A DNA stretch of 64,000 nt from sequence record PZ386951.1, one strand, 5' to 3'. Under the pieces are notes generated by a model. The model did not search any database, was not told the DNA's origin, and worked only from the letters and a program-made list of their open reading frames with translations. Every line of letters begins with the position of its first letter. The stretch's first letter is position 1. This document shows positions 14,406 through 28,276 of the stretch, piece by piece. This DNA is from a phage. Both the position numbers and the translations under genes were made by a program.

Positions 14406-15328
14406 TTCAGTATCTCAATAGCATCACGTAAACCATTTGCTTTGGCGGTTAAAGCCTTAAGAACTTTAGTATGCTCTTCAATCTGTTTTTCAACTTCAAT
14501 CAAACGAGCATTGAGATATTCGCGTTCTTCTTTCATAGTATCATTCCCATGATTGGATTTTGGTGTAGGTTTAAATTCACTAGGGTCCTTTAATTTAATA
14601 ACAAATTTAGTTTCAAACAGTGAAAGACCATAATTCGTATTATCATCAAAGGATTTGACTACATCCATATCAGATAATAACACGCGTAAATTATAAGCCA
14701 AAGAACTAATAGTTTCATTGTGTTTATTAGCTTCGCGTGGTTTCATATACGGAAGATTTTTATATATCTCGTGCGGAGCACAAACAATAATTGACAATTC
14801 AAATTGCCCATTCTGGGACGATGGAGTGAATTTAGCCGTAACCCAGTCTTTTACATTCACATTAATAGTACGGTTATCACCATGACAAAACAGTCTACGA
14901 GAATGCTTAAAAAGCATATTCACGTTATTATTGAATTCGTGTGAAAATTCACTAGCAAATTTTTCTTTACTATCTTTAGAAAACCATTCTTCTAAATAAG
15001 TTCTTTTCACGTCGTTAATAATATTAAATGTAACAACACTAGCATTTGATACATTAGTCTCAATGTAGCTTGGATACATAAATTTTTTAACATTATTAAC
15101 AGCTATCACAGAAGATAGTAATCGGGAACGTTTGAACCACTCTAGCAAAGAACCAAGAGAATGTGAATATGCATTTTGTGTATCTTTACAAATATGGTTT
15201 TCCCATCCAATATAGTCTAAAAAATCACGAAGAATATTATTGATTACTGCTCTGTGTCCAATCTGATAATTACGGTGTTTAGTAATAAGACTGTCAAAAT
15301 AATCAATATAATGTTTACGAGTTTTCAT
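14402..15328 (-). CDS. hypothetical protein, paralog family member A (308 aa, C-terminal coiled coil)
   Basis: N-terminus MKTRKHYIDYFDSLI resembles B (TRNEYIKSFNSVI) and C (MKTRSQIED); C-terminal ~45 aa heptad-rich helix. Confidence 0.65.
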   Translation of the reverse strand: MKTRKHYIDYFDSLITKHRNYQIGHRAVINNILRDFLDYIGWENHICKDTQNAYSHSLGSLLEWFKRSRLLSSVIAVNNVKKFMYPSYIETNVSNASVVTFNIINDVKRTYLEEWFSKDSKEKFASEFSHEFNNNVNMLFKHSRRLFCHGDNRTINVNVKDWVTAKFTPSSQNGQFELSIIVCAPHEIYKNLPYMKPREANKHNETISSLAYNLRVLLSDMDVVKSFDDNTNYGLSLFETKFVIKLKDPSEFKPTPKSNHGNDTMKEEREYLNARLIEVEKQIEEHTKVLKALTAKANGLRDAIEILK

Positions 15329-15380
15329 GTTCTTCTCACTTGGTTAATGATTTATACTCCGAGCCATCCTTGGCTTTAAA

Positions 15381-16383
15381 TTACTTAATTAACTGTAAAG
15401 CTTGTTCAAGACGATCAAGACGATTAACGGATTCTTCCCAAATCTTTTTAGCCTGCTCATATTCTTTCTGCGCTTTATTAGAAATTTCTAGAGCTTCTTT
15501 ATAAGCTTTTTCTAGTGCAATAACTTCTGGACGAATTTCTATCGGTTCAGGTGAATCGTCAAGACATTCCATTAGTTCCTCAAGGGTAGTTTCTTCTTTA
15601 GGAGTATTCACAATTTCATCACATTTTTGTTGATAAATTTCTTTATCAGTAGGTGAGTACGCGCACTTTACTTCACGAAGACTAATTACAATTTTATATC
15701 CTTCCCAACCGCATATATTCTTAAAAGGATAAGTATGAATATTTTCTACTGTTTCCATACAAAGTAATGCGGTCTCTAATTGACGAGTTATAGTGCTAGC
15801 AATTGAGAAAAATTTATTAATATTCTTTTGGTTAGTTTCTGGTGTAAAAAATCCATAATTCACAAAAATAGATACTTTATTTTTATCAAGTTCATATTCT
15901 TTTATGATAATCATATCAGAAGCCAAAGGATGAATTTGACGATAATCGCCATAACATAATTTAGAAGCTGATTTTAGAATCTGTCCTTTGAAAAGTCTGA
16001 AATTACTAATCCAACGACGAGTAAAAATATTCTCAGGGTCTTCTTTATTATTAAGATGATAAGAATTAACATCACCGAACCAATTATATCCTACTACATC
16101 TTTGGTTCGTTTAATTTCTTTCCCAAAATTACCAAGAATATCCCGATTAACCAAATATGAAAGAAGACGAGACTCTTTAAAGGTTTTCTTGATAAGATCT
16201 TTATCTACACGGCTAGAAATTTTACGAATTTCATGAATAAATTTAGTAGAAGAAACAATACTTGCATCAACACTATTGAGCCATTGATTGATAATAGAAA
16301 GAACGATATTTTGACCAAACATCGGTATAGCTTTATCATCAATAACGCTATTGAATGATTTGATATATTCGTTACGAGTCATA
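15381..16383 (-). CDS. hypothetical protein, paralog family member B (~333 aa, C-terminal coiled coil)
   Basis: Start placed at MTRNEYIK (RBS GAGGAG); the longer track start would overlap the promoter. Confidence 0.65.
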
Positions 16384-16411
16384 TTAATCTCCTCAGTAGA
16401 AAGTAAGAACA

Positions 16412-16441
16412 TTATACCACATCCTTGTGGCAAAGTAAACT
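16412..16441 (-). promoter_or_regulatory. T4-type early promoter (GTTTAC ... TGgTATAAT)
   Basis: Minus strand: GTTTACtttgccacaaggatgTGGTATAAT, immediately upstream of paralog B. Confidence 0.6.
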
Positions 16442-17468
16442 AGTTCAGTGCATTTAGTGCATTGTTCAGTTTAGAACGTTGCTTTGTCAGATTTTGAACC
16501 CTTGACTGAGCTTGTTCTAACACCTTTTCAGCTTCTAGCACTTCATTAGTTGCTTTAACGAGTTCATCATCTACTGCCTTAAGAGACTTCTCAATCGCGT
16601 CAGCGTGCCATTTTTCTACAGGTTTAAAATTTGAATTTTCAGTAGGAAGAAAACTCACTTTATTAAGTTTACATGCATCTATATTGCTTGAGCTATACAT
16701 CCAAAATTTAGGATCGTTTGATAAGTAATTGGATAAATTTAAATTTAAGTTATCTTGTACTTCCTGCTTTTTCTCTTGCGGGACTTCGTCCTTTCTCAAA
16801 AAATCGTATTTAAATGAAACGATCATATCAAGTTCATATGATGTTGTATCTAATTTAAATCGTTCAAAACGAGGTAAAATCTTAGATTGAACAGCAGCAA
16901 CAACATCCATATACTTAAATGCTTCTGTCAACTGTGATTTAAGGCATTCACAAATTGAAAGAGAATTTTTTGTATTAGGTTTAAAACTAATTCGCGCAGT
17001 TCTATTATTTTCTTTTAACGGTCTTACTTCCATCTGAAGAGTATAACCATCAAATTTCAGATTCTTTAAGTTAATATCAGAGCCTTTTAATCGACTAGAA
17101 GTAGACAAAATTTGCTTTAATTGTTTACGGAATAGAGCAATAAATCTCCATTCAATACGATAATGATTTGGATTGAAAAATCCAGATGATAAATCGACCT
17201 TACTCTGACCAACACCTTGAACAAATAGAGGATTTTTATAATCAATAGTTTTACAGAAATCGGTGAGCTGCTCACGAGCAGTCATTTGCGTAATATACCC
17301 TGCTTTACTAAAATTACGCACCCATTCACTGCTATTCGTATACTTAAAGTGATGAATAACACGATTAACTTTATCAGGGTCTAAATTATTTTCACACAAA
17401 AATGTCATAACATCACGAGTATAACTGGCATTACGAACCATATCTTCAATTTGAGAACGAGTTTTCAT
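16440..17468 (-). CDS. hypothetical protein, paralog family member C (342 aa, C-terminal coiled coil)
   Basis: RBS AAGGAA 5 nt before ATG. Confidence 0.65.
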   Translation of the reverse strand: MKTRSQIEDMVRNASYTRDVMTFLCENNLDPDKVNRVIHHFKYTNSSEWVRNFSKAGYITQMTAREQLTDFCKTIDYKNPLFVQGVGQSKVDLSSGFFNPNHYRIEWRFIALFRKQLKQILSTSSRLKGSDINLKNLKFDGYTLQMEVRPLKENNRTARISFKPNTKNSLSICECLKSQLTEAFKYMDVVAAVQSKILPRFERFKLDTTSYELDMIVSFKYDFLRKDEVPQEKKQEVQDNLNLNLSNYLSNDPKFWMYSSSNIDACKLNKVSFLPTENSNFKPVEKWHADAIEKSLKAVDDELVKATNEVLEAEKVLEQAQSRVQNLTKQRSKLNNALNALN

Positions 17469-17476
17469 AGTGTTCC

Positions 17477-18385
17477 TTAAGATTTAAGTAAATCAACAAT
17501 TTTAATTAACTTTTCACGCTCAGATTTAGCTTTACTACTCAATCCAGATAGTCTGAAAATTTCATCGTCATACTGTTGAATAGAAATATTCAGCTCTTCA
17601 ATTTGCTTATTAAAATAATCAATTTGTTCAGAATGTTTTTCGTTACTACGAACTGGTACATGTTTTGTAGGTAATTTAGATGAACTGGATTCATCCGGGC
17701 GATAAATTAAAATACAACTTGAACCAATCGGGCATTTTGCACCAGACGAATATTCTAATGTTCCGGCTTCTTTTAAAACTTCAAAAGCTAAACAGAGATG
17801 ATGTCCCATATTAACATAATCTGTAGAGCGAGCTCTGATATAATAATCATCGCCGCGAATACTAAATTTAAAGCATTTAAGGTCTTCTGTATTATTGGTC
17901 TTAAAAATCATTTGTTTATCTAGACCTTTAGCTAATCGAGCGCCTAATGCTAATAATCGTCGTTGATTTTCCCACAAATCTGCGATCATTTGGTCAAATG
18001 ATAATTTCGGCATTAGTCGACCGTAAAGATCATAGCCTTTATTATAATTGCGAAGGATTTCACTCGCATTAATACGAGACAACGCTCCAATTTTATTAAG
18101 GGCTTTCATAATGCGATTAGATAAACCCATTCCAGACCCGTTTGTTCGTTGTAAATGTTTATCTAATCCAAACCCAATATCAACTTTAAATTTATCTAAA
18201 ATTTCAGCATGAACATCTCTGTCAATAACATTCAAATCCAAAGTTGGGTTAAATCTATGAAAAAATTTATCTGGCTCTCCACGACGAAGTACAGTCCATT
18301 CATTCAATTTTTTATTAACTAAAGATTTAATTACTGCATTGACATTATTAATTACGACTGACATATTTTCCTCACTCAATTTCAA
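17477..18385 (-). CDS. hypothetical protein, paralog family member D (302 aa, C-terminal coiled coil)
   Basis: Same architecture (globular N-terminal region plus helical tail); start may be the internal MSVVINN. Confidence 0.6.
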   Translation of the reverse strand: MKLSEENMSVVINNVNAVIKSLVNKKLNEWTVLRRGEPDKFFHRFNPTLDLNVIDRDVHAEILDKFKVDIGFGLDKHLQRTNGSGMGLSNRIMKALNKIGALSRINASEILRNYNKGYDLYGRLMPKLSFDQMIADLWENQRRLLALGARLAKGLDKQMIFKTNNTEDLKCFKFSIRGDDYYIRARSTDYVNMGHHLCLAFEVLKEAGTLEYSSGAKCPIGSSCILIYRPDESSSSKLPTKHVPVRSNEKHSEQIDYFNKQIEELNISIQQYDDEIFRLSGLSSKAKSEREKLIKIVDLLKS

Positions 18386-18779
18386 TTTTACTAAATATAC
18401 AGAATAAGATGGAACAGACTATATAAGCACCACACACAGATTGAACTAATACCATTCCAAAGAACCAAATAATATTATCAAACAATGTCTGTTTTACGTC
18501 GAAAGGACGTAAACTTACAGTAATATTATCACCTTTTTCTATTGAAGAATACATCTCTGGGGAAATATATTCACTAAATCTATAACCGTCTTTGAGTTCA
18601 TATACAGCAATAAATGATAAACTAGACCCCTTTCCTTGAGTTCCTGTAATGGTATTAACTACAGTAACATCATAATCTTTATAATGCATATAATCATTAA
18701 TTGCGTAATAACCATATGCAATTACTATACATAAACAACATATCAATAAATTCAATCTTTTAATTATCAACCGTTTCAT
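18372..18779 (-). CDS. membrane protein (135 aa, two predicted TM helices)
   Basis: Hydrophobic segments LICCLCIVIAYGYYAI and IIWFFGMVLVQSVCGAYIVCSILFCIF. Confidence 0.55.
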   Translation of the reverse strand: MKRLIIKRLNLLICCLCIVIAYGYYAINDYMHYKDYDVTVVNTITGTQGKGSSLSFIAVYELKDGYRFSEYISPEMYSSIEKGDNITVSLRPFDVKQTLFDNIIWFFGMVLVQSVCGAYIVCSILFCIFSKIEIE

Positions 18780-18808
18780 AATAATCTCAATTAAAAGGGC
18801 TTAGAACC

Positions 18809-18817
18809 ATTATACCA
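18809..18817 (-). promoter_or_regulatory. extended -10 element TGgTATAAT within a short inverted repeat (candidate early promoter)
   Basis: Minus strand TGGTATAAT flanked by ttatacc/ggtataa inverted repeat; no clear GTTTAC. Confidence 0.3.
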
Positions 18818-18834
18818 TCCTTGGTATAAAGCGG

Positions 18835-19362
18835 TTATGCGAGTACCGTCTTTAACCGTTCTTCAAACTTCCGAAGAGTATTTTGGCGTTCAGCTCTTTG
18901 CTTTTTGTAAGTTTCAATACGCTCTGAAATGAGAGTGTATCGTTCATTTACTGATTCTTTCATAAAATCAGGAATTTCACGAGAAGTTTTAATCTCGTCA
19001 AATTTATCAATAACAGCTTGCTCTTCAGCAATTAAGTTATCATACATCAAAATATCTTTCTTGATGAACTCAATATCTTCTTGAGTTACACGAGATAATT
19101 TAGATGCTTTATCCTTTTTGTACTGTTCGTTAGTATCACGAGACCAGTGTAATGTACGATTTTTATTCGTATTCTTGTAAATTTCTACAATACCAATCTC
19201 ATCGATAATAACGATCCAATTCCAACGGGATTTGTAAATTTGTCCTCCATCAACAGTGATTTCACCTCCGATTGAGATGTCATTAAAGAACTTGCTTTGT
19301 GCTTCTGATTTAAATTTACCATCGTTGTAATTTACCAGGTTGAAAATATCTTTAGCGTTCAT
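18835..19362 (-). CDS. hypothetical protein (175 aa)
   Basis: RBS GGAGG 8 nt upstream of ATG. Confidence 0.6.
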   Translation of the reverse strand: MNAKDIFNLVNYNDGKFKSEAQSKFFNDISIGGEITVDGGQIYKSRWNWIVIIDEIGIVEIYKNTNKNRTLHWSRDTNEQYKKDKASKLSRVTQEDIEFIKKDILMYDNLIAEEQAVIDKFDEIKTSREIPDFMKESVNERYTLISERIETYKKQRAERQNTLRKFEERLKTVLA

Positions 19363-19390
19363 TTTGTGTTCCTCCGTAGTTGATAGTTGT

Positions 19391-19420
19391 ATAGTACCAC
19401 AGAGGAACAGTCTTGTAAAC
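19391..19420 (-). promoter_or_regulatory. T4-type early promoter cassette
   Basis: Minus strand GTTTACaagactgttcctctgTGGTACTAT; leader caactatcaactac shared with copies at 20835 and 36211. Confidence 0.55.
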
Positions 19421-19422
19421 CA

Positions 19423-19737
19423 CTAAAAGAAACTTCTTTCACAATTTTTTCCACTGAACCATGCGCTCACTGCTTTCTTAGTCTCAGGAGCGGTGTTATC
19501 CATAAACCATTCAAAGGCAGCCTTTTTATGATTCTGGAGGGCTTCTCGGGCTTTAATCTGCTCACGGTCTATTAACACTAACATATGAGCCTTTCTTGTC
19601 ACCAAGGGCTTCTTATGATTTTTTGAATACTCCCAATCATTTGTCCATCGCATCGTTGTTGCGAATTGAAATACAGCTTCTTTAATTTTAGTTTCGTAAA
19701 TTTCACGAGCCTTTGAGTATAACATCACTACCTCCAT
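19423..19737 (-). CDS. hypothetical protein (~100-104 aa)
   Basis: ORF; start may be the second Met. Confidence 0.5.
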   Translation of the reverse strand: MEVVMLYSKAREIYETKIKEAVFQFATTMRWTNDWEYSKNHKKPLVTRKAHMLVLIDREQIKAREALQNHKKAAFEWFMDNTAPETKKAVSAWFSGKNCERSFF

Positions 19738-19827
19738 TTACCAGTTTAATTCTAATCATCTTTTTGATGGCAGTCCATATAATCTATTTCTGAACTGCCT
19801 TTTTGTCATAGAAGTCCTCTTATGAAT

Positions 19828-20796
19828 TTATTTCAGAAGAGTAACCTCAGCAATTTCTTCCCAACCGTTTTTGTCGGTCATAATAAAGTCAGCAAGATAA
19901 AGTGCAGTACGCAGTGAAACATTGCGTAAACGATTAACATTGACTTTCATCCATGATAATGCTTTATAAGTTTCTTCATCAGAAAGACCGCGCTTTTGCA
20001 TCATGTCAGTTGAAAGAATAACATCTTCAACCCTGACCATAATTTCTTCATTAGTGTGAACACCCAAATCCAAATAAACTGAGCGGGACACTAATGCTTG
20101 TAAATGTGGAGCAAGTTTAGTACCACGGTCTAATTCGCGGTCAATGTCAACGTTTGTGATAAAAACAATCGTTCCTTTAAATTCAAACTCACGCTCAATG
20201 CCTTTTTCTTCTAAGTAAGAAGATGCAGTGCTCCAGCAGACTTTACGGGTCTCTCCGGTGTCCAGAGCAGCTTTCAGAAGATTAAGAATGTCCATATCAG
20301 AGAAAACATCCACATCATCAATCAAAAGGACAGAATTCTCTTCACGATTATTCCAGAGCTGTTCATAAAGACCGATACCAGAGATTTTACCGTTAATGCT
20401 TTTATACTCAATGTATCCAATATCATTTGCTTTATTTAAAGCTTTATCTAAAGAATACGTTTTACCAATACCCGCCGCACCAGAGATAATTAATGAACGA
20501 ATGTTTCCGTTAATAATACCATTCGTCATCATTCCCATAACATTAAATCTTTTATTAATGCGGGTTTTCATATCTTCATATGATTCTTTAACTTCTTCAA
20601 CTTTTACACCATCATATGAAATGTCTGATTTGTAAACCCAAACACCACGACGTTTACCGTCAATTTCAACAAAAACTTTACCATCTCCTTGTGCATCTAC
20701 CGGAGCATTATCTGGGAACCATTCGCCTAAGAGCTCAAAAGTTCCAGAGATTTCTTTACCGAAGTAGATACCCTTATTGATAGTTACAGTTTTCAT
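19828..20796 (-). CDS. AAA+ family ATPase (~322 aa)
   Basis: Walker A GAAGIGKT, Walker B VLLIDDVD, sensor-like TIVFITN; start at MKTVTINKG (RBS GGAG), since the longer track start runs into the promoter. Confidence 0.7.
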   Translation of the reverse strand: MKTVTINKGIYFGKEISGTFELLGEWFPDNAPVDAQGDGKVFVEIDGKRRGVWVYKSDISYDGVKVEEVKESYEDMKTRINKRFNVMGMMTNGIINGNIRSLIISGAAGIGKTYSLDKALNKANDIGYIEYKSINGKISGIGLYEQLWNNREENSVLLIDDVDVFSDMDILNLLKAALDTGETRKVCWSTASSYLEEKGIEREFEFKGTIVFITNVDIDRELDRGTKLAPHLQALVSRSVYLDLGVHTNEEIMVRVEDVILSTDMMQKRGLSDEETYKALSWMKVNVNRLRNVSLRTALYLADFIMTDKNGWEEIAEVTLLK

Positions 20797-20834
20797 TTTT
20801 ATTCTCCAAATCTGTATCAGTAGTTGATAGTTGT

Positions 20835-20864
20835 ATAGTACCATAAAGCTTTATGCTTGTAAAC
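20835..20864 (-). promoter_or_regulatory. T4-type early promoter cassette
   Basis: Minus strand GTTTACaagcataaagctttatgGTACTATAC with conserved upstream ttttcacaaagtt. Confidence 0.55.
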
Positions 20865-20913
20865 AACTTTGTGAAAAATTTTTGAAATAAAAATGGAGCC
20901 CGAAGGCTCCCTA

Positions 20914-21927
20914 TCATTTATAATAACTTCGGTGGTTTTCAAGATAGACCTTCTCAAGGAAGTCATCCCAGAAACTCATGTCTACTTTTTGCTGCATACC
21001 GTTCTTAGAAGCTTCAGTAGATGCTGCTTCTACTTGATCGACCACATCTTCCAAAAACTCTTGAACCGTTTTAAATGGATGTTTACCCAACTTCACGTCG
21101 AGAATAAATGGAGCATCTTGGAGTGGATAAACTAAGTCGCCAGTTTTGTAAATTTCCAATAGTTGGAGTCCACCACGGCAAGCATGACTCAGAGCTTTCC
21201 AGTCAATACCTTCATTGGCTTCGGCCTTACGAGCACGTTCACCATATTCAGCATCTAATTTGTTCAGTGACTGCTTAAGCTCAATAAGAGAAAGCGTTGT
21301 CTGATATTTACGACCCAACACAGTGTAGAACGTTTGTGGGCCTGTTTTCTCATGATTATGGAACACCCATTCACAGAATTCGTTTTCTGGAAGACGATGC
21401 TTAATATCTTCAACTTTAGTGCGACGCTGCTTAATGGAACCGTCTTCTTGGTAATCAACCCATTGCTCGGGGATTTGATTAACTACTTTCAATACATCAC
21501 GTAATGCAGCCAAACGAGAACCCTTGACACCGTATTTAGAAGCTTGCTTGCGGACATATCCTAAATAGGATTTCATGTTAGTCGTATAAAAACGAGAACG
21601 GTTGTCTTGAATAAACTTCCACACGTCAGGCAAATCAGATTTAACAACTAGTTCAGGTGGAGTGTGGAGCATATCCAATGCTACAGTTTCACCATCTGCT
21701 GCTAATTTAAAGAAATACTTAAGACTATACAATTCGTGGTCAATATCATCTTTAGTGTTTTTAGATGATGTGTTGTTGGTATTTTTACTCATATGCTCTT
21801 TAACATTTCCGATAAGAATATCGCGAGCAGGAGGAATAAAGATTTCTTTAAAATCTACATCAGATTCTGGAGTAGAAGTTCCATAAAGATGACTACCAAA
21901 ATAGCTTTTCATTACTGTTTTCATCAT
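20914..21927 (-). CDS. predicted nucleotidyltransferase (pol-beta fold minimal NTase signature)
   Basis: 337 aa; N-terminal GSHLYGTSTPESDVDF fits the GS-x(9-13)-DxD nucleotidyltransferase signature. Confidence 0.6.
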   Translation of the reverse strand: MMKTVMKSYFGSHLYGTSTPESDVDFKEIFIPPARDILIGNVKEHMSKNTNNTSSKNTKDDIDHELYSLKYFFKLAADGETVALDMLHTPPELVVKSDLPDVWKFIQDNRSRFYTTNMKSYLGYVRKQASKYGVKGSRLAALRDVLKVVNQIPEQWVDYQEDGSIKQRRTKVEDIKHRLPENEFCEWVFHNHEKTGPQTFYTVLGRKYQTTLSLIELKQSLNKLDAEYGERARKAEANEGIDWKALSHACRGGLQLLEIYKTGDLVYPLQDAPFILDVKLGKHPFKTVQEFLEDVVDQVEAASTEASKNGMQQKVDMSFWDDFLEKVYLENHRSYYK

Positions 21928-22385
21928 TCAGCCTTATATTCAATAACAGGACATACTTTAGCTTTACGCGCTTTTAAAAATTCGACGATAACCGATTTCT
22001 TGGGTTGAATAGGAGGTAAACCCTTATACGCCCTATCAATATTTTCTACATGTAAAGCATAATCCTTTTTCCATTTATAATCTTTATATTTTTCATGCAG
22101 TTGTGCAGGAATAACAAATGAACCAATAATAAGTAAAACAAGCAAAATGGCAAGTATAAATGCTGATGGAATAAGAGTCCATAAACTACCAAAAATAAGC
22201 CATTTCTGTATGATTTCTGCGCAGATAATAGTTAGACCTGCGAGTATAGTACATCCGAAAAAAGAAACGAAAAATGTAGGAATAACAATAGACCAAAAGT
22301 ATGCACACAGTGTCTTAGGTCGTTTCCATTCGTCGTTAAACATTTTGAATAATTTATAATGCCAAGAGCTTTCATTAATAATCAT
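21924..22385 (-). CDS. membrane protein (153 aa, 3 predicted TM helices)
   Basis: Hydrophobic segments in own reading. Confidence 0.55.
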   Translation of the reverse strand: MIINESSWHYKLFKMFNDEWKRPKTLCAYFWSIVIPTFFVSFFGCTILAGLTIICAEIIQKWLIFGSLWTLIPSAFILAILLVLLIIGSFVIPAQLHEKYKDYKWKKDYALHVENIDRAYKGLPPIQPKKSVIVEFLKARKAKVCPVIEYKAE

Positions 22386-22387
22386 AA

Positions 22388-22909
22388 TTATCCTTTCATT
22401 GAAGGTGTAACAGTTGTTAAATACTTAATCATAGCTTCAGCTTCTGATTTTGACAATGAAATTTCTCCATTGTTTTGACGAATAGAAATAAAATCCGGAT
22501 GACGGTCACCACCAGCTTTTAAAACACACATATAAGTATCAGTTTCATCTTCAATATCTGAAATGATTGAAGCAGTTCCGCATGAATGTGGTTTTTGATA
22601 AATCAATGCAGCTTTTCTTCCACCGTTTGACTGTTCATAAACTTTTAACACATCAAACAAATCACTTCTTTTATCAATAGCTAAGATGTTGTTTTCATCT
22701 TCAATGTTAAATCCTTCGGATACTTCATAAAGTGTCACCCATAAATCGCCAATATCAATGACAGCATTCACCTTTCCATGATTTTCAAGAGCATTACAAA
22801 TTTTCTTAATTTCATCATAACTCATTTTAATAATATCATCTCCTTGAATAAAGAAGATGTCATTTTTAAATTCAACGCGAATTAAACCACTTTCACTTGA
22901 AATAAACAT
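22388..22909 (-). CDS. hypothetical protein (173 aa), paralog of 22916..23473
   Basis: C-terminus SKSEAEAMIKYLTTVTPSM aligns with TKDEAIALKTYLDSVIPTM of the neighbour. Confidence 0.55.
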   Translation of the reverse strand: MFISSESGLIRVEFKNDIFFIQGDDIIKMSYDEIKKICNALENHGKVNAVIDIGDLWVTLYEVSEGFNIEDENNILAIDKRSDLFDVLKVYEQSNGGRKAALIYQKPHSCGTASIISDIEDETDTYMCVLKAGGDRHPDFISIRQNNGEISLSKSEAEAMIKYLTTVTPSMKG

Positions 22910-22915
22910 ATTTCC

Positions 22916-23473
22916 TCACTTTGAAATCATAGTTGGAATGACAGAATCAAGATAAGTCTTTAGCGCAATAGCTTCGTCTTTGGTAAATGTGACAATATGC
23001 GATCGAAAATCGTCAATTTGACGAATAGTTAAGACATCTCCCTCTTCATAACATTTTGATACATTTAAAAGAGTTTCATCATTCTGATTGCAAGCGTTAG
23101 TAATAATAGCATTGCAATTTTTGAGCCATTTTAAACTATGTTTTCTTTCATTAGAATAATAAAAATATTTAATCTTAGCTATAAAACTATCCCAATGGAT
23201 AACTGATAAACACATTGACTCACTTTTAATATTAAATCCTGGGCATGAAGAATAAAAATGAATTTTGTGCTCATCATTGATGCTTACTATTTTATCAGTA
23301 TAAGGATATTCAATTTGGGTTAAATGAATAATTTCACTAGGTGTAAAATACATCATATCGTCTTCTTGCGTCAAACGATACATATTATTTACTTTTTCTA
23401 TAGCCAATTCACCAAAAAGTGGACTAACTTCTAATACTAATCGTTTCATATTGATTCTCTTCGACTCGCTCAC
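22916..23473 (-). CDS. hypothetical protein (185 aa), paralog of 22388..22909
   Basis: Shared C-terminal motif EAxAxKxYLxxVxPxM. Confidence 0.55.
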   Translation of the reverse strand: MSESKRINMKRLVLEVSPLFGELAIEKVNNMYRLTQEDDMMYFTPSEIIHLTQIEYPYTDKIVSINDEHKIHFYSSCPGFNIKSESMCLSVIHWDSFIAKIKYFYYSNERKHSLKWLKNCNAIITNACNQNDETLLNVSKCYEEGDVLTIRQIDDFRSHIVTFTKDEAIALKTYLDSVIPTMISK

Positions 23474-23608
23474 AATTACATACTCCTTTGAATCATATCA
23501 ATAATATTGTTCACCAAATTATAAGTAAACATTGGGTAATTATATTGAATCATCACATACACAACAAACAAAATTTTCATTCTCTTCTCCTTGACAGTTG
23601 GCAAGATT

Positions 23609-23638
23609 ACTATACCATAACCTTGCCAACTTGTAAAC
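23609..23638 (-). promoter_or_regulatory. early promoter embedded in a 9-bp inverted repeat (promoter/stem-loop cassette)
   Basis: gttggcaag-attactatacca-taa-ccttgccaac; minus strand GTTTAC ... TGGTATAGT. Confidence 0.5.
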
Positions 23639-23640
23639 CA

Positions 23641-23813
23641 TTAAATGACGTTTTCAATAAAATTCTGAAGCTTTGTATGAGCATCAACCATGATTTTCAT
23701 TTCTTCCTTTGCGAAAGCTGTACCTCTTTCCCGAGCAGAATACTCATAGTCAGAAACTGCATTAGCATATTCTTCAATTAGTTTCATTAAAAACATCTGC
23801 TTTTCAGTTTTCA
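23641..23813 (-). CDS. hypothetical small protein (~57 aa), below track cutoff
   Basis: Own translation MKTEKQMFLMKLIEEYANAVSDYEYSAREGT...; RBS GGTGG 5 nt upstream. Confidence 0.35.
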
Positions 23814-23998
23814 TTATTCCACCTAATCATTTCAAGGTATTGAACTAACTTAGCTTTGGATTTATCCAAATCCTTTTTAGCTGCTTCTATACCGTCGTAT
23901 GAATATCCTTCACAATGCTCAACTGCTAATTGATATGAATCTATTTCAATATCACGTGCTAATTTAATGATTTTTTCAAACTGTTCGCGTGTTAGCAT
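23804..23998 (-). CDS. hypothetical protein (64 aa)
   Basis: ORF. Confidence 0.45.
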   Translation of the reverse strand: MLTREQFEKIIKLARDIEIDSYQLAVEHCEGYSYDGIEAAKKDLDKSKAKLVQYLEMIRWNNEN

Positions 23999-24000
23999 AC

Positions 24001-24204
24001 TTAAACTCTCGTATTATGATCGATAATTTCATCAAGAAACATATCTAACGCTTCTAAAGCATTATCAACTTTAGCTTCAAGTTCATCAATACCTTTATTT
24101 GCAATGCCTGACGAAAACCAAGCAAAGTCACTAAGTTCCTCATCTGCTTTACGAATTGAAGCCACTAATTCCTTGATTTTATCTGCTTGCTCTATACTAA
24201 TCAT
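24001..24204 (-). CDS. hypothetical protein (~67 aa)
   Basis: Start at internal Met giving a TAATG stop/start overlap with the upstream ORF. Confidence 0.45.
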   Translation of the reverse strand: MISIEQADKIKELVASIRKADEELSDFAWFSSGIANKGIDELEAKVDNALEALDMFLDEIIDHNTRV

Positions 24205-24392
24205 TATTCCACCACATATGAAAGAGAGAATATTGCACACGCCATGTGAGTTGCAACTTCATCACACATATTATAACGTTTCTTAAGAAGTTCTACAAGT
24301 TCTTCACTAGTGACTTCATCCATGTCGACGAAAAAATCGCCATTAATGATGACATAGATATTTCCTTCTTGATTAAGTGCTTCAATTTTCAT
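24204..24392 (-). CDS. hypothetical acidic protein (62 aa)
   Basis: RBS GAGGAG upstream of ATG. Confidence 0.5.
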
Positions 24393-24420
24393 GATGTTCT
24401 CCTCTTTATCCGATGGTTGT

Positions 24421-24450
24421 ATAGTACCGCGGCTCAGACGGAAAGTAAAC
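24421..24450 (-). promoter_or_regulatory. T4-type early promoter
   Basis: Minus strand GTTTACtttccgtctgagccgcGGTACTAT. Confidence 0.45.
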
Positions 24451-24465
24451 CGGTAAAATGAAAAA

Positions 24466-24483
24466 AGTCTCCCGAAGGAGACT
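24466..24483 (-). terminator. stem-loop agtctcc-cgaa-ggagact followed by a T run on the minus strand
   Basis: 7-bp stem, tetraloop, 6 T downstream; sits 4 nt after the stop of ORF 24488..24874. Confidence 0.55.
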
Positions 24484-24487
24484 AATG

Positions 24488-24874
24488 TTATTCGAGGGAA
24501 AGAAGATACTTACTCTGGTAAAACATTCCAGTAATATCATCTATCGTGCTTTGGATGGCTGGAGGCATTTCTTTATAAATGCTGTTAGATTGGTCTAGTA
24601 TGCGATCAATCATTTTAATTGTGTCGGTAGGAAGTTTACTGGCATCTGGAATTGAAGGCGTGTATTTTCTACCAGAATACCCCAAATATTGCTCACCAAA
24701 TTTATCAATCAAATCTGGCAACTCGGAGAAAATAAAATCGTATGCTTTGTGTCTAGCATAACTTTTAGTTTCAAAATGTGCAGAATGAAAATAAGCTTGT
24801 GCAGCCATTAATAAACCTAAGTATTCATCTGCCTTTGAAGGTTTTCCACTTTGTGAAAAGTCGCTGAATTTCAT
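24488..24874 (-). CDS. hypothetical protein (128 aa; rI.1 position)
   Basis: Stop overlaps rI start region; synteny only. Confidence 0.5.
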
Positions 24875-25164
24875 TCAGTCTCCAATTTAATGTTCATAAT
24901 TCTAGCGTATGATTGTGCCATCTCCGCGCCTCGTTCTATACATTCAAAATCAGAAGAGCACGGGTCATTTTTATAGGTCGTTCTCATAAAACTATAGAAT
25001 TGTTCAGACGATTCTACGCTTTTATTTTCAAAAAGCATATAAACGTGCCTAATACCAGATTCCATAAATTTATCAAAATGAGGATCGACATTCGCTTCAA
25101 TCGATGGAGATAAAACAAATGACAATCCTAGCATGGCAAATAGTGCCGTTGCTTTTAAGGCCAT
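24871..25164 (-). CDS. rI: lysis inhibition regulator rI-like (signal-anchor periplasmic protein)
   Basis: 97 aa (T4 RI length) with N-terminal hydrophobic signal ALKATALFAMLGLSFVLSPSIEA; position upstream of tk. Confidence 0.7.
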   Translation of the reverse strand: MALKATALFAMLGLSFVLSPSIEANVDPHFDKFMESGIRHVYMLFENKSVESSEQFYSFMRTTYKNDPCSSDFECIERGAEMAQSYARIMNIKLETE

Positions 25165-25176
25165 AAAGGCCTCCTA

Positions 25177-25389
25177 TCATTTTTGCCCTGTATTTACTTT
25201 ATGCCGATGCACGGCCTTAACTTTATCAAGGTATTTTTCAAAATTTCGCAATCTAGTATAGTCTGCCGGAGATTGGTTGAGTGATACTTCTCGACGCAAA
25301 GCTGAAATGATATTTCCAACTTCCCTACGAATTTCATCTAATTGAAGAACAGTAAGATTGCGAAGTTGCTTTTCAGTTAATTGTAGCAT
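25177..25389 (-). CDS. hypothetical protein (70 aa)
   Basis: ORF between tk and rI. Confidence 0.5.
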
Positions 25390-25431: not shown

Positions 25432-26013
25432 CTAACCGAGCTTTTTAGTTAATTCATTCCAATGTTTTCTACACAAAGAAACATAAATTTCATCACCAAT
25501 ACAGATTTGATTACCTTCTTTAACGGGTGTTCCATCTTCCATTAATCGAGCTGTCATAATCGCTTTTTTTCCGCAATGACAAACTGCCTTCAGTTCAATA
25601 AGTTTATCTGCAATCGCTAAAAGTTCTTTAGAACCTTCAAATAATTTTCCGGCGAAATCAGTCCTTAATCCATAAGCCATAACAGGAACATTATATGTAT
25701 CAACAATTCGGCTCAATTGATGCACTTGTTCAGTTTTTAAAAACTGAGCTTCATCTACAAATACGCAATGAATATCTTTTTGTGCTTCAGCCCATTTATA
25801 GAACTCGAAAATATCCATATCATCTGTAATAATATTCGCTTCCTGTTTAATTCCAATGCGAGAAACAACTTCACAGACAGAATCGCGAGTATCAATAGCA
25901 GGCTTAAGAACTAATACACTCATTCCACGCTCTTTATAATTATGAGCAGCAGTCAAAAGAGAAGCAGATTTTCCAGCATTCATTGCTGCATAAGTAAAAA
26001 TTAAACTCGCCAT
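25432..26013 (-). CDS. tk: thymidine kinase
   Basis: 193 aa; P-loop AMNAGKSASLL; C-terminal zinc cysteines (CHCG...C...C). Confidence 0.9.
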   Translation of the reverse strand: MASLIFTYAAMNAGKSASLLTAAHNYKERGMSVLVLKPAIDTRDSVCEVVSRIGIKQEANIITDDMDIFEFYKWAEAQKDIHCVFVDEAQFLKTEQVHQLSRIVDTYNVPVMAYGLRTDFAGKLFEGSKELLAIADKLIELKAVCHCGKKAIMTARLMEDGTPVKEGNQICIGDEIYVSLCRKHWNELTKKLG

Positions 26014-26022
26014 ATCACCTTC

Positions 26023-26229
26023 TTAAAGCGTATTCACATAAGCTATTAATTCATTTTCTTTCTTATCAAACCGATCAGCAAATTCTTCCTGCTGTTCGGG
26101 AGATAGCGGGCCGTATTCATCATAAAAGGTGTTTGCTTCTGTATGCTCATCTAGAAGTTCATGGATAAGCTCAAACAATTTATCTTTTTGTTCTTTACTC
26201 AGACTCATAACCATGTCACCTTTAAGCAA
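26023..26229 (-). CDS. hypothetical acidic protein (68 aa)
   Basis: ORF. Confidence 0.45.
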   Translation of the reverse strand: MLKGDMVMSLSKEQKDKLFELIHELLDEHTEANTFYDEYGPLSPEQQEEFADRFDKKENELIAYVNTL

Positions 26230-26417
26230 TATTCTTCTACATGTTGTTTACGACCTTTCTTATCAATAAAGGTATATTCAACGAATGTTCCAATGTAGTC
26301 TTTATCTACATCATGTGGACTATTAATTGGACATTTAGTACGGCAAATGCGTTCCCATTGACGAATAATTACTGCTTTGTTTTTAGGATCAAACGGATGT
26401 GGGTAATGTACTTTCAT
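26205..26417 (-). CDS. hypothetical protein (70 aa)
   Basis: ORF. Confidence 0.45.
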   Translation of the reverse strand: MKVHYPHPFDPKNKAVIIRQWERICRTKCPINSPHDVDKDYIGTFVEYTFIDKKGRKQHVEEYCLKVTWL

Positions 26418-26868
26418 AATCCACCACTATTAAATCAATATCAGGAGTAAACATGTCGATTAATTTAGAAACCTTATCCCAATCACCGCCAGCAATACCA
26501 CAACCTATGCGTGGAATGTAAATTACCGGTTTAAACAAAAGGGTTTCTGCCTGTAGATTTAATTCTATCATGCAGTTTACTAAAGCACCATAATCAAGAT
26601 TAGGACCTGGTTCGTATTGCGTATACAAGTTATAACATATGCCAAAACCATTAGGTTTATGTTTAAAAACAATAGACATATCGCCTAATTTATCACGAGA
26701 ACCGTACTCAGTAGTGGTTTTATCTATTTCTAAAATTTTGGGATAGGCTCTTGCTAATTGACCCGCTACACCTGAACCCATAGTATGAAAACAATTGCAC
26801 CCGTGCGCAATAATATTACCTTCAAGAAAGAGGGCGACAATATCGCCCTTGATATATTTTACAATCAT
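26389..26868 (-). CDS. macro-domain-like protein (putative ADP-ribose binding/hydrolysis)
   Basis: 159 aa; KGDIVAL...IAHGCNC...MGSGVAGQLARAYP and later PRIGCGIAGG resemble the macro-domain diphosphate-binding loops. Confidence 0.5.
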   Translation of the reverse strand: MIVKYIKGDIVALFLEGNIIAHGCNCFHTMGSGVAGQLARAYPKILEIDKTTTEYGSRDKLGDMSIVFKHKPNGFGICYNLYTQYEPGPNLDYGALVNCMIELNLQAETLLFKPVIYIPRIGCGIAGGDWDKVSKLIDMFTPDIDLIVVDYESTLPTSV

Positions 26869-27212
26869 CTAGTACTCAATCCTCGATTATAAGAATCTAC
26901 CAAACGGTCAACCATTGAATGACAAGCGGCTTTATCTTTCTCCTCCGCAACTGAACATTCTAAAGTATTCCACTTTTTAGCATATCGTTTTAATAATGTA
27001 TCGTTTTTGTATCTGCTTGATTTATCTCTTTCTCCGTCTTTATATGCATATATTAATTTCTGTGCAAATTCAGCTTGGCATGCTTTATTTTTCCCACAAT
27101 AATCTGCCGCAGTGCGGTTTACATATTCTCTAATTTCAGTATATGATGTATCTGCTGACGCAGAAGCAGAAAATGAAATTAATCCTATACATAAAACCAA
27201 AATTTTAGTCAT
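26865..27212 (-). CDS. secreted small protein with Sec signal peptide (115 aa)
   Basis: N-terminus MTKILVLCIGLISFSASASA then mature domain with 4 Cys. Confidence 0.55.
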   Translation of the reverse strand: MTKILVLCIGLISFSASASADTSYTEIREYVNRTAADYCGKNKACQAEFAQKLIYAYKDGERDKSSRYKNDTLLKRYAKKWNTLECSVAEEKDKAACHSMVDRLVDSYNRGLSTR

Positions 27213-27750
27213 TTACTATTTCCAAAAGTTTATTATTTTTAAGGTAATTAGCCTTTTCTAGGACTTCAGAAGCATATTTAGAACCAGCTTTAACATTCCA
27301 TCCCGAATTATAAGAGGATATTGCTTTTCTTATATCGCCCTTATGTATATTTAACCAATAAGAAAGTTCAATGTACGCCCAGGAAGCTGAATTGGATCGT
27401 TTATTCAACATTCTTTTTATTTCAGCATCGGTCATATTATAACCAAGTTCCTTAACTCTTGCTCGCATAGTAGGCAAATAATTTTGGAACATTCCATAAG
27501 CGTGATGCTTTGGTTTAGATTTTAAATTAACTCCGCCAGAGCTTTCTTGCCATAAAATAGCAGCCATTATATGACCTAATCCGCTCTTGTGGATATTTTT
27601 ATGTGTTTTATATTTTCCATCCTTAGAAAACTGTTCCCCGAATTGATACGCGTAACGCATGTTATCGAGTTGGACATTACTGAAAGTATGCTCGGAGCTA
27701 TGTGCCATCATTGAAATGGCCAATAGACCAGCGAGTAGTGCTTTTCTCAT
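27205..27750 (-). CDS. secreted lytic-transglycosylase-like (SLT-domain) protein
   Basis: 181 aa; signal peptide; SLT-like motifs WQESSGG, AYGMFQ, SSYNSG. Confidence 0.55.
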   Translation of the reverse strand: MRKALLAGLLAISMMAHSSEHTFSNVQLDNMRYAYQFGEQFSKDGKYKTHKNIHKSGLGHIMAAILWQESSGGVNLKSKPKHHAYGMFQNYLPTMRARVKELGYNMTDAEIKRMLNKRSNSASWAYIELSYWLNIHKGDIRKAISSYNSGWNVKAGSKYASEVLEKANYLKNNKLLEIVND

Positions 27751-27757
27751 GCTTACC

Positions 27758-28219
27758 TCATTGAGTTTTAATTACTGCTTTAGAAGCCTTTCCTGGTAAA
27801 CGACGACTGTTGATAATTGCCATCCTACATTGAAGTGACGGGTTTTTGAACTTCTCATTAGGTTTACAAACCGTAAATCCAAGCCAAAGATTTCCATCTG
27901 TGATTTCTAAACGTCCAGGACGATATTCAACCCCATCAATAAAATCCTCGTCAATGTCAGGACGTGGAGGCATACTCAGGAATTCATTAACTTCTAAAAC
28001 ATGGTCTTTTATTTTATGGAATAATTCAAAAACATATGTCTCATCAATCTCCCGTTGAATTGCACGATCAAGAAGATGCTGAGAATATTTTAGATGAAAC
28101 GATGAGACCCCTGCTGCTTTTGATGCCTCACGAATCTCATTGTTAATTTGACGAAACTCCGACTCAAAGTGACGACGGAGCTTATTTCGACGGATAAAAA
28201 CTTCTGTGTTGATAGTCAT
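27758..28219 (-). CDS. regB: endoribonuclease RegB
   Basis: 153 aa beginning MTINTEVFIRRNKLRRHFESEF, matching recalled T4 RegB. Confidence 0.85.
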   Translation of the reverse strand: MTINTEVFIRRNKLRRHFESEFRQINNEIREASKAAGVSSFHLKYSQHLLDRAIQREIDETYVFELFHKIKDHVLEVNEFLSMPPRPDIDEDFIDGVEYRPGRLEITDGNLWLGFTVCKPNEKFKNPSLQCRMAIINSRRLPGKASKAVIKTQ

Positions 28220-28246
28220 GTTATTCTCCTCTTAACTGATAGAAAA

Positions 28247-28276
28247 ATTATACCACAGTCAAGAGGAAAAGTAAAC
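28247..28276 (-). promoter_or_regulatory. T4-type early promoter upstream of regB
   Basis: Minus strand GTTTACttttcctcttgactgTGGTATAAT. Confidence 0.6.

Follow-up and report, generated by a model that had tools for sequence, protein, structure and literature searches.

The closest described relative of the gene reported here is tk.4 of phage T4. The tk.4 orthologues were matched to the A1pp domain by Nolan et al. (2006; PMC1524935), and the T4 RefSeq entry for Tk.4 reads 'phosphatase; contains A1pp phosphatase motif' (NC_000866), a 'phosphatase' label that stems from the old A1pp domain name and not from an assay (PMC1524935). T4 without adfA and adfN was still resistant to DarTG2, and a further factor was predicted (AdfN paper, PMC11825919). 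In the HIDEN-SEQ preprint, growth of a T4 transposon library on a DarTG2 host gave tk.4 as the sole significant hit, and a clean tk.4 knockout made T4 DarTG2-sensitive; the predicted structure of T4 Tk.4 was found to resemble Mtb DarG, and the gene was renamed adfM, for 'anti-DarT factor macrodomain' (bioRxiv 10.1101/2025.11.20.689424). The evidence for T4 AdfM is genetic, from a preprint, and concerns the T4 allele only, which is 58% identical to the one described here (10.1101/2025.11.20.689424). The gene is therefore already known, as an A1pp/macro domain since 2006 and with its function published in 2025, and the active-site and allele observations of this study are incremental.

Two further systems are relevant for comparison. 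PhiKZ gp104, also named AdfM, is a stand-alone phage macrodomain that counters DarTG2 and strips DarT2-made ADP-ribose from DNA in vitro (Cell Rep 2026, PMC13309987). SCO6735 of Streptomyces coelicolor outpaces DarG and TARG1 in removing thymidine-linked ADP-ribose from DNA, and it rescues cells from DarT; activity is lost in its Q85A and Q85E mutants, nearly lost in N27S and reduced in G128E (PMC9411070). As a Gln is unable to serve as nucleophile or base, the authors proposed a water-mediated mechanism positioned by Gln85 and Asn27 (PMC9411070). The same study equates Q85 with DarG K80 and TARG1 K84, describes the Asn at the position of Asn27 as conserved in 'almost all enzymatically active macrodomains', and uses a mobile loop, five residues longer than in DarG/TARG1, to mark the SCO6735/Bt_1257 subclass (PMC9411070). 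The active-site Asn of DarG has likewise been mutated, as N22A (PMC5179494).

The DNA analysed in this study (the window; 64,000 nucleotides of sequence record PZ386951.1) comes from a T4-like phage (Tequatrovirus). Alignment by blastn to T4 (NC_000866) identified tk (25432–26013), a tk.2 homologue (26023–26229), tk.3 (26205–26417), vs (26865–27212), vs.1 (27205–27750) and regB (27758–28219), all on the minus strand. A 159-aa ORF on the same strand (26389–26868), running from ATG to TGA with the stop codon (26389–26391) included in these coordinates, sits between tk.3 and vs and therefore fills the T4 tk.4 slot; an earlier note, made from the sequence without database searches, had given the same ORF and placed it correctly in the tk-regB interval. 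The ORF is the orthologue by position of T4 tk.4/adfM and, with the vs/tk.3 position in a Tequatrovirus genome and full-length homology, belongs to the Tk.4/AdfM orthologous group. Its 3' end overlaps the start of tk.3 by 29 nt (26389–26417), compared with a 4-nt ATGA overlap at this junction in T4, and the C-terminus is four residues longer than that of T4 Tk.4, with aa 156–159 being of low confidence in the structure model. T4 tk.1 (∼190 bp, NC_000866 60346–60534) has no counterpart at 26013–26032 of the window, where the tk.2 homologue follows almost directly after tk.

That the ORF encodes a protein with a macrodomain fold is virtually certain. The Pfam Macro profile PF01661 matched with 33.1 bits (E = 6.2e-8) against a curated gathering cutoff of 22 bits, covering profile positions 2–117 of 118, and PHROG 335 matched with E = 1.6e-71. 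Searching PDB sequences with phmmer returned Bt_1257 (1.9e-10) and Mtb DarG (1.4e-5), as well as yeast Poa1p, SCO6735 and TARG1. A profile built from 100 homologues matched solved structures of Bt_1257 (1.8e-19), TARG1 (3.3e-16), SCO6735 (7e-16), Poa1p (3.7e-14), Mtb DarG (1.4e-11) and Taq DarG (4.8e-10). An AlphaFold2 model from the single sequence was unusable (pLDDT 37.6), and the model from a 99-sequence alignment, in which the T4 Tk.4 row was left out, was taken instead (pLDDT 93.8, pTM 0.89). Fold comparison revealed the three-layer alpha/beta/alpha macro fold in this model, and the top Foldseek match was human TARG1/OARD1 (E 2.9e-10). The macro-domain call, which the earlier note had made by eye and for which it had proposed a Pfam search and a structure prediction with fold comparison, is thus borne out by PF01661, by the PDB sequence matches and by a confident model. 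The nearest sequence and structure neighbours are of the ALC1-like class (TARG1/DarG/SCO6735/Poa1p) and not of the MacroD, PARG or macroH2A types; from the PDB profile and fold matches, the protein is therefore placed in the ALC1-like (TARG1/DarG) class.

Across 99 homologues with 38–96% identity, residues H22, G23, N25, C26, G33, A35, D49, N80, Y82, Q84, P119 and W130 are invariant. These were mapped using profile-HMM alignments, which agree with one another, with the strand boundaries of the model and with published DarG numbering. The DarG sequences were taken from the PDB search, with the query being 100% identical to 5M3I, and the SCO6735 numbering agrees with the published mutants. A five-sequence MAFFT alignment and a pairwise phmmer alignment to Bt_1257 were both rejected, as each misplaced the central NMIGQ segment. 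The motif strings quoted in the earlier note are all present (GNIIAHGCNC at aa 17–26, MGSGVAGQL at aa 30–38 and PRIGCGIAGG at aa 119–128), and alignment with DarG shows its two motifs to be the pair of loops with which the macrodomain binds its ligand: the HGCNC and MGSGVAGQ loop aligns with DarG N22/V31/Q34, and the PRIGCGIAGG loop with DarG G117–G121. The published DarG contacts N22, V31, Q34, T79, G117 and G119 fall on identical residues at constant offsets, which supports the alignment register. By this mapping to the DarG contacts, the ADP-ribose-contacting residues of the window protein can be assigned, with binding itself being predicted.

The H22-G-C-N25-C26 segment (codons at 26791–26805, minus strand) was placed by the family alignment and by profile alignments to SCO6735 and DarG; His22 and Asn25 align with SCO6735 H24 and N27, and Asn25 also with DarG N22. 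The glycine-rich loop and helix start, M30-G-S-G33-V-A35-G-Q37 (26758–26781, minus strand), is a predicted ADP-ribose contact in which V34 and Q37 lie opposite V31 and Q34 of DarG. In N80-L-Y82-T83-Q84 (26617–26631, minus strand), profile-HMM alignments put Gln84 at the position of DarG catalytic K80, TARG1 K84 and the essential Gln85 of SCO6735. Profile alignments likewise delimit the phosphate-binding loop, P119-R-I-G122-C-G124-I-A126-G-G-D-W130 (26479–26514, minus strand), where G124 aligns with SCO6735 G128 and DarG G119, and A126 lies opposite TARG1 D125. Since H22, N25, Q84 and G124 of the window protein align with H24, N27, Q85 and G128 of SCO6735, the Tk.4 family, including T4 AdfM, has a catalytic set of the SCO6735 type in place of the lysine of DarG/TARG1, and the chemistry of the Tk.4 lineage probably differs from the lysine mechanism that those two enzymes use.

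Despite the shared catalytic set, the resemblance to SCO6735 is limited. SCO6735 and Bt_1257 are Gln-type ALC1-like macrodomains with only ∼26–29% identity to the window protein, and relative to the Tk.4 family profile they have a 5–6-residue insertion directly after the Gln, which the Tk.4 family does not. The basic K34 and K89 of SCO6735 are replaced by S32 and G88, and the net charge of the window protein is −5, compared with +5 for SCO6735 and +4 for Taq DarG. Lacking the longer mobile loop, K34 and K89, and being acidic, the Tk.4 family does not, on present alignments, fit neatly into the SCO6735/Bt_1257 subclass. The acidic charge would also not be expected of a DNA-binding surface and may count against a role as a DNA hydrolase. 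Human TARG1/OARD1 (profile E 3.3e-16) has the PRIGCG loop in common with the window protein, but its K84, D125 and S35 (the last written Ser26 in the SCO6735 paper) are replaced by Q84, A126 and N25, so the mechanism through a lysyl-ADP-ribose intermediate cannot apply.

DarG was the only PADLOC match to the protein (4.3e-7), restricted to profile positions 3–144 of 329, which is the N-terminal macro part only, and the best NCBIfam match, antitoxin_DarG, reached 27.8 bits against a cutoff of 250. In DarG (PDB 5M3I, 5M31; PMC5179494), N76-F-P-T79-K80 lies opposite N80-L-Y-T83-Q84; the catalytic lysine is absent from the window protein, whilst the active-site Asn N22 is kept as the invariant N25. 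DarG, at ∼330–340 aa, also has a C-terminal DarT-binding domain, whereas the 159-aa window protein has no such domain. No darT gene adjoins the ORF, its neighbours being vs and tk.3. Judged from sequence and context, the window protein is not a DarG copy. A tblastn search of plasmids for an annotated DarG found only generic stand-alone macrodomains and SLOG fusions. In the one cellular case, a Pelagimonas phthalicica chromosomal homologue with 40% identity, the gene stands alone among housekeeping genes with no darT nearby. This single homologue is a hint that the Tk.4 lineage does not come from a DarTG operon, and the nearest cellular relatives of T4-type AdfM could be stand-alone genes.

Unlike the window protein, PhiKZ gp104 is of the true DarG type and possesses the FPTK lysine motif. 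Its match to Mtb DarG reaches 90.6 bits, whereas its match to the window protein stops at 10.5 bits, which places the two 'AdfM' proteins in separate lineages of one class. The name was given twice, in independent 2025–2026 studies, to non-orthologous macrodomains, T4 Tk.4 of the Gln type and PhiKZ gp104 of the Lys type, and this is likely to be a source of annotation confusion.

Homologues of the protein were detected by tblastn in 2856 of 50,697 phage records, with an identical protein in phage vB_EcoM_IME340. By megablast, the DNA of the ORF was found in 572 phage records (best identity 99.2%), in which it is annotated as 'phosphatase', 'macro domain protein' or 'hypothetical protein'. Homologues also occur outside these phage records. 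On CP057073.1, a 137.6-kb E. coli 'plasmid', a 43%-identical homologue lies within the stretch 14856–25308, in a run of 21 same-strand hypothetical genes that lacks mobility genes; the record resembles a phage-plasmid or a large phage genome that was deposited as a plasmid. Macrodomain homologues also occur within 'SLOG family protein' annotations on Bacillus thuringiensis and Cytobacillus plasmids, which suggests macro-SLOG fusions, possibly with a role in nucleotide-signal or defence contexts.

Compared with T4 Tk.4 (NP_049723; 155 aa), the window protein shows 58% identity over 155 aligned residues without gaps (E = 4e-70). The first 14 N-terminal residues are identical and the H22/N25/Q84 set is held in common, and the differences, at 42% of residues, are concentrated in aa 54–83 and 114–151. 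The phosphate loop of the window protein, PRIGCGIAGGDW, agrees with the family consensus, compared with PRIGAGIGKGNW in T4 Tk.4; over the stretch IGCGIAGGDW, which reads IGAGIGKGNW in T4, the window allele is the nearer to that consensus. At the DNA level, sliding-window identity to T4 is 97–100% in tk.3, vs, vs.1 and regB but 38–75% in the body of the ORF (∼26392–26800), whilst the first ∼70 nt of the ORF are near-identical to T4. The boundary is sharp, with 26392–26800 being divergent and the flanks at 26200–26390 and 26830–28270 being 97–100% identical to T4, and this mosaic pattern indicates that recombination has replaced the allele at an anti-defence locus. Divergence from T4 is likewise strong in the tk.2 homologue (53–68% DNA identity over 26032–26200), making it a second hypervariable small gene in the same cluster.

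A protein with 90% or more identity to the window allele is encoded in ∼319 phage records, and DNA with 95% or more identity to that of the T4 allele is present in ∼217, which means that at least two alleles circulate at one locus. A 58%-identical allele within ∼99%-identical flanks could reflect arms-race diversification, with a target spectrum differing from that of the T4 allele; candidates for such shifted targets could be further variants of DarT2, or else ADP-ribose linked to RNA or protein. The joint reading, that T4-type AdfM is an independent Gln-type macrodomain lineage and not a captured DarG, and that the window allele has targets shifted by an arms race, is offered tentatively and is rather unlikely to hold in full.

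The likely explanation for these observations is that the ORF is an AdfM allele, encoding a stand-alone enzyme that hydrolyses DarT2-made thymidine-ADP-ribose on phage DNA. Host DarT2 would ADP-ribosylate thymidines in single-stranded phage DNA and so block replication; the cleft of the phage macrodomain would bind the ADP-ribose moiety on thymidine, and hydrolysis of the N-glycosidic thymidine-ribose bond would restore replicable DNA. In this scheme Q84, buttressed by N25 and H22, would position the distal ribose and a catalytic water, as in SCO6735, so that the protein would perform the chemistry of the antitoxin without the antitoxin's toxin-binding domain. We infer the same activity for this 58%-identical allele from the T4 gene, where the DarTG2 sensitivity of the tk.4 knockout matches the earlier note's suggestion that a phage macrodomain could reverse host ADP-ribosylation-based defences (10.1101/2025.11.20.689424). 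Against the explanation stand the lack in the Tk.4 family of the DarG/TARG1 catalytic Lys, its lack of the longer mobile loop, K34 and K89 of SCO6735, and the presence of Gln at this position also in the ALC1 macrodomain, a domain that binds poly(ADP-ribose) but does not hydrolyse it.

Three alternatives to DNA de-ADP-ribosylation were considered. The one that survives best, though still improbable, is that the enzyme acts on protein or RNA and not on DNA, removing marks made by phage Alt, ModA and ModB or by other host defence ADP-ribosyltransferases. T4 Alt, ModA and ModB modify arginine, however, and macrodomains of the ALC1-like class are not known to cleave arginine-linked ADP-ribose; the further suggestion of the earlier note, that a macrodomain could process the phage's own ADP-ribosylation products, found no support. 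The strong divergence between the alleles could mirror changing targets, ADP-ribose on protein glutamates is likewise removed by TARG1 and SCO6735 (PMC9411070; PMC5179494), and TARG1-class enzymes are reported to be active on uracil ADP-ribose in RNA (PMC13036486). Nevertheless, the T4 screen yielded no phenotype other than that with DarTG2 (10.1101/2025.11.20.689424), and T-even phages are reported to be still sensitive to the mRNA ADP-ribosyltransferase system CmdTAC (PMC11618068).

It is very unlikely that the macrodomain is non-catalytic, acting either as a stoichiometric inhibitor of DarT2 or as a binder that sequesters ADP-ribose-containing molecules. Neither the catalytic Lys nor the catalytic Asp of TARG1 is present, their places being taken by Q84 and A126, and the ALC1 macrodomain likewise carries Gln at the Q84 position. 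Catalytically dead SCO6735 Q85A moreover still inhibits DarT by interaction (PMC9411070), but the isolated K80A macrodomain of DarG fails to do so (PMC5179494). Every residue that inactivates SCO6735 on mutation is invariant here, including Asn25, and a small protein outnumbered by DNA lesions would be better suited by an enzyme. Equally little can be expected of a small-molecule enzyme, an ADP-ribose-1''-phosphate phosphatase (Poa1p type) or an O-acetyl-ADP-ribose deacetylase, as implied by the database labels 'phosphatase' and 'O-acetyl-ADP-ribose deacetylase', since no ADP-ribose-1''-phosphate source is known for T4 infection, and the DarTG2-specific T4 knockout phenotype would be left unexplained. 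DNA de-ADP-ribosylation accounts for that phenotype better than all three of these alternatives.

With regards to expression, the tight packing on one strand, the ATGA in which the vs stop overlaps the tk.4 start codon (26865–26868, minus strand, as read directly from the sequence and from the ORF coordinates), and a sigma-70-like promoter upstream of regB suggest that tk.4 probably shares a transcript with regB, vs.1 and vs. The ATGA overlap is consistent with co-transcription and translational coupling of vs and tk.4. The promoter (28247–28275, minus strand; TTTACT, a 17-nt spacer and TATAAT with a TG extension) was identified by consensus scan with 10 of 12 matches and is a candidate early promoter for a regB-vs.1-vs-tk.4 unit, from which early expression of the gene may follow. 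Promoter-like sites in the region, however, are not enriched, with 14 found compared with 16.2 expected from shuffles, so the promoter evidence is weak.

The MotA-box pattern TGCTTYA-N11-13-TANNNT occurs 17 times in the window, compared with 2.3 expected. One such middle-promoter motif lies within the ORF (26562–26587, minus strand) and points towards tk.3/tk.2/tk; it was dropped as evidence for expression, as it carries a mismatch in T4 (CGCTTTA) and is not conserved. A GC-rich hairpin with a perfect 8-bp stem, AGGGCGATATTGTCGCCCT, lies in codons 7–13 of the ORF, with a T-rich tract after it (26831–26849, minus strand). T4 has the identical hairpin despite the divergence elsewhere in the gene; the hairpin could act at the RNA level on translation or decay, or could simply belong to the conserved 5' segment.

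Whilst the finding is mainly confirmatory, it adds to the view of T-even phages as carrying layered enzymatic counter-defences to DNA ADP-ribosylation, with AdfA, the NADAR enzyme AdfN against DarTG1, and a macrodomain against DarTG2. The Gln site of T4-type AdfM, set against the lysine of DarG and PhiKZ AdfM, means that one name probably covers different chemistry, and the presence of at least two very different Tequatrovirus alleles at one locus amounts to a natural experiment on specificity.
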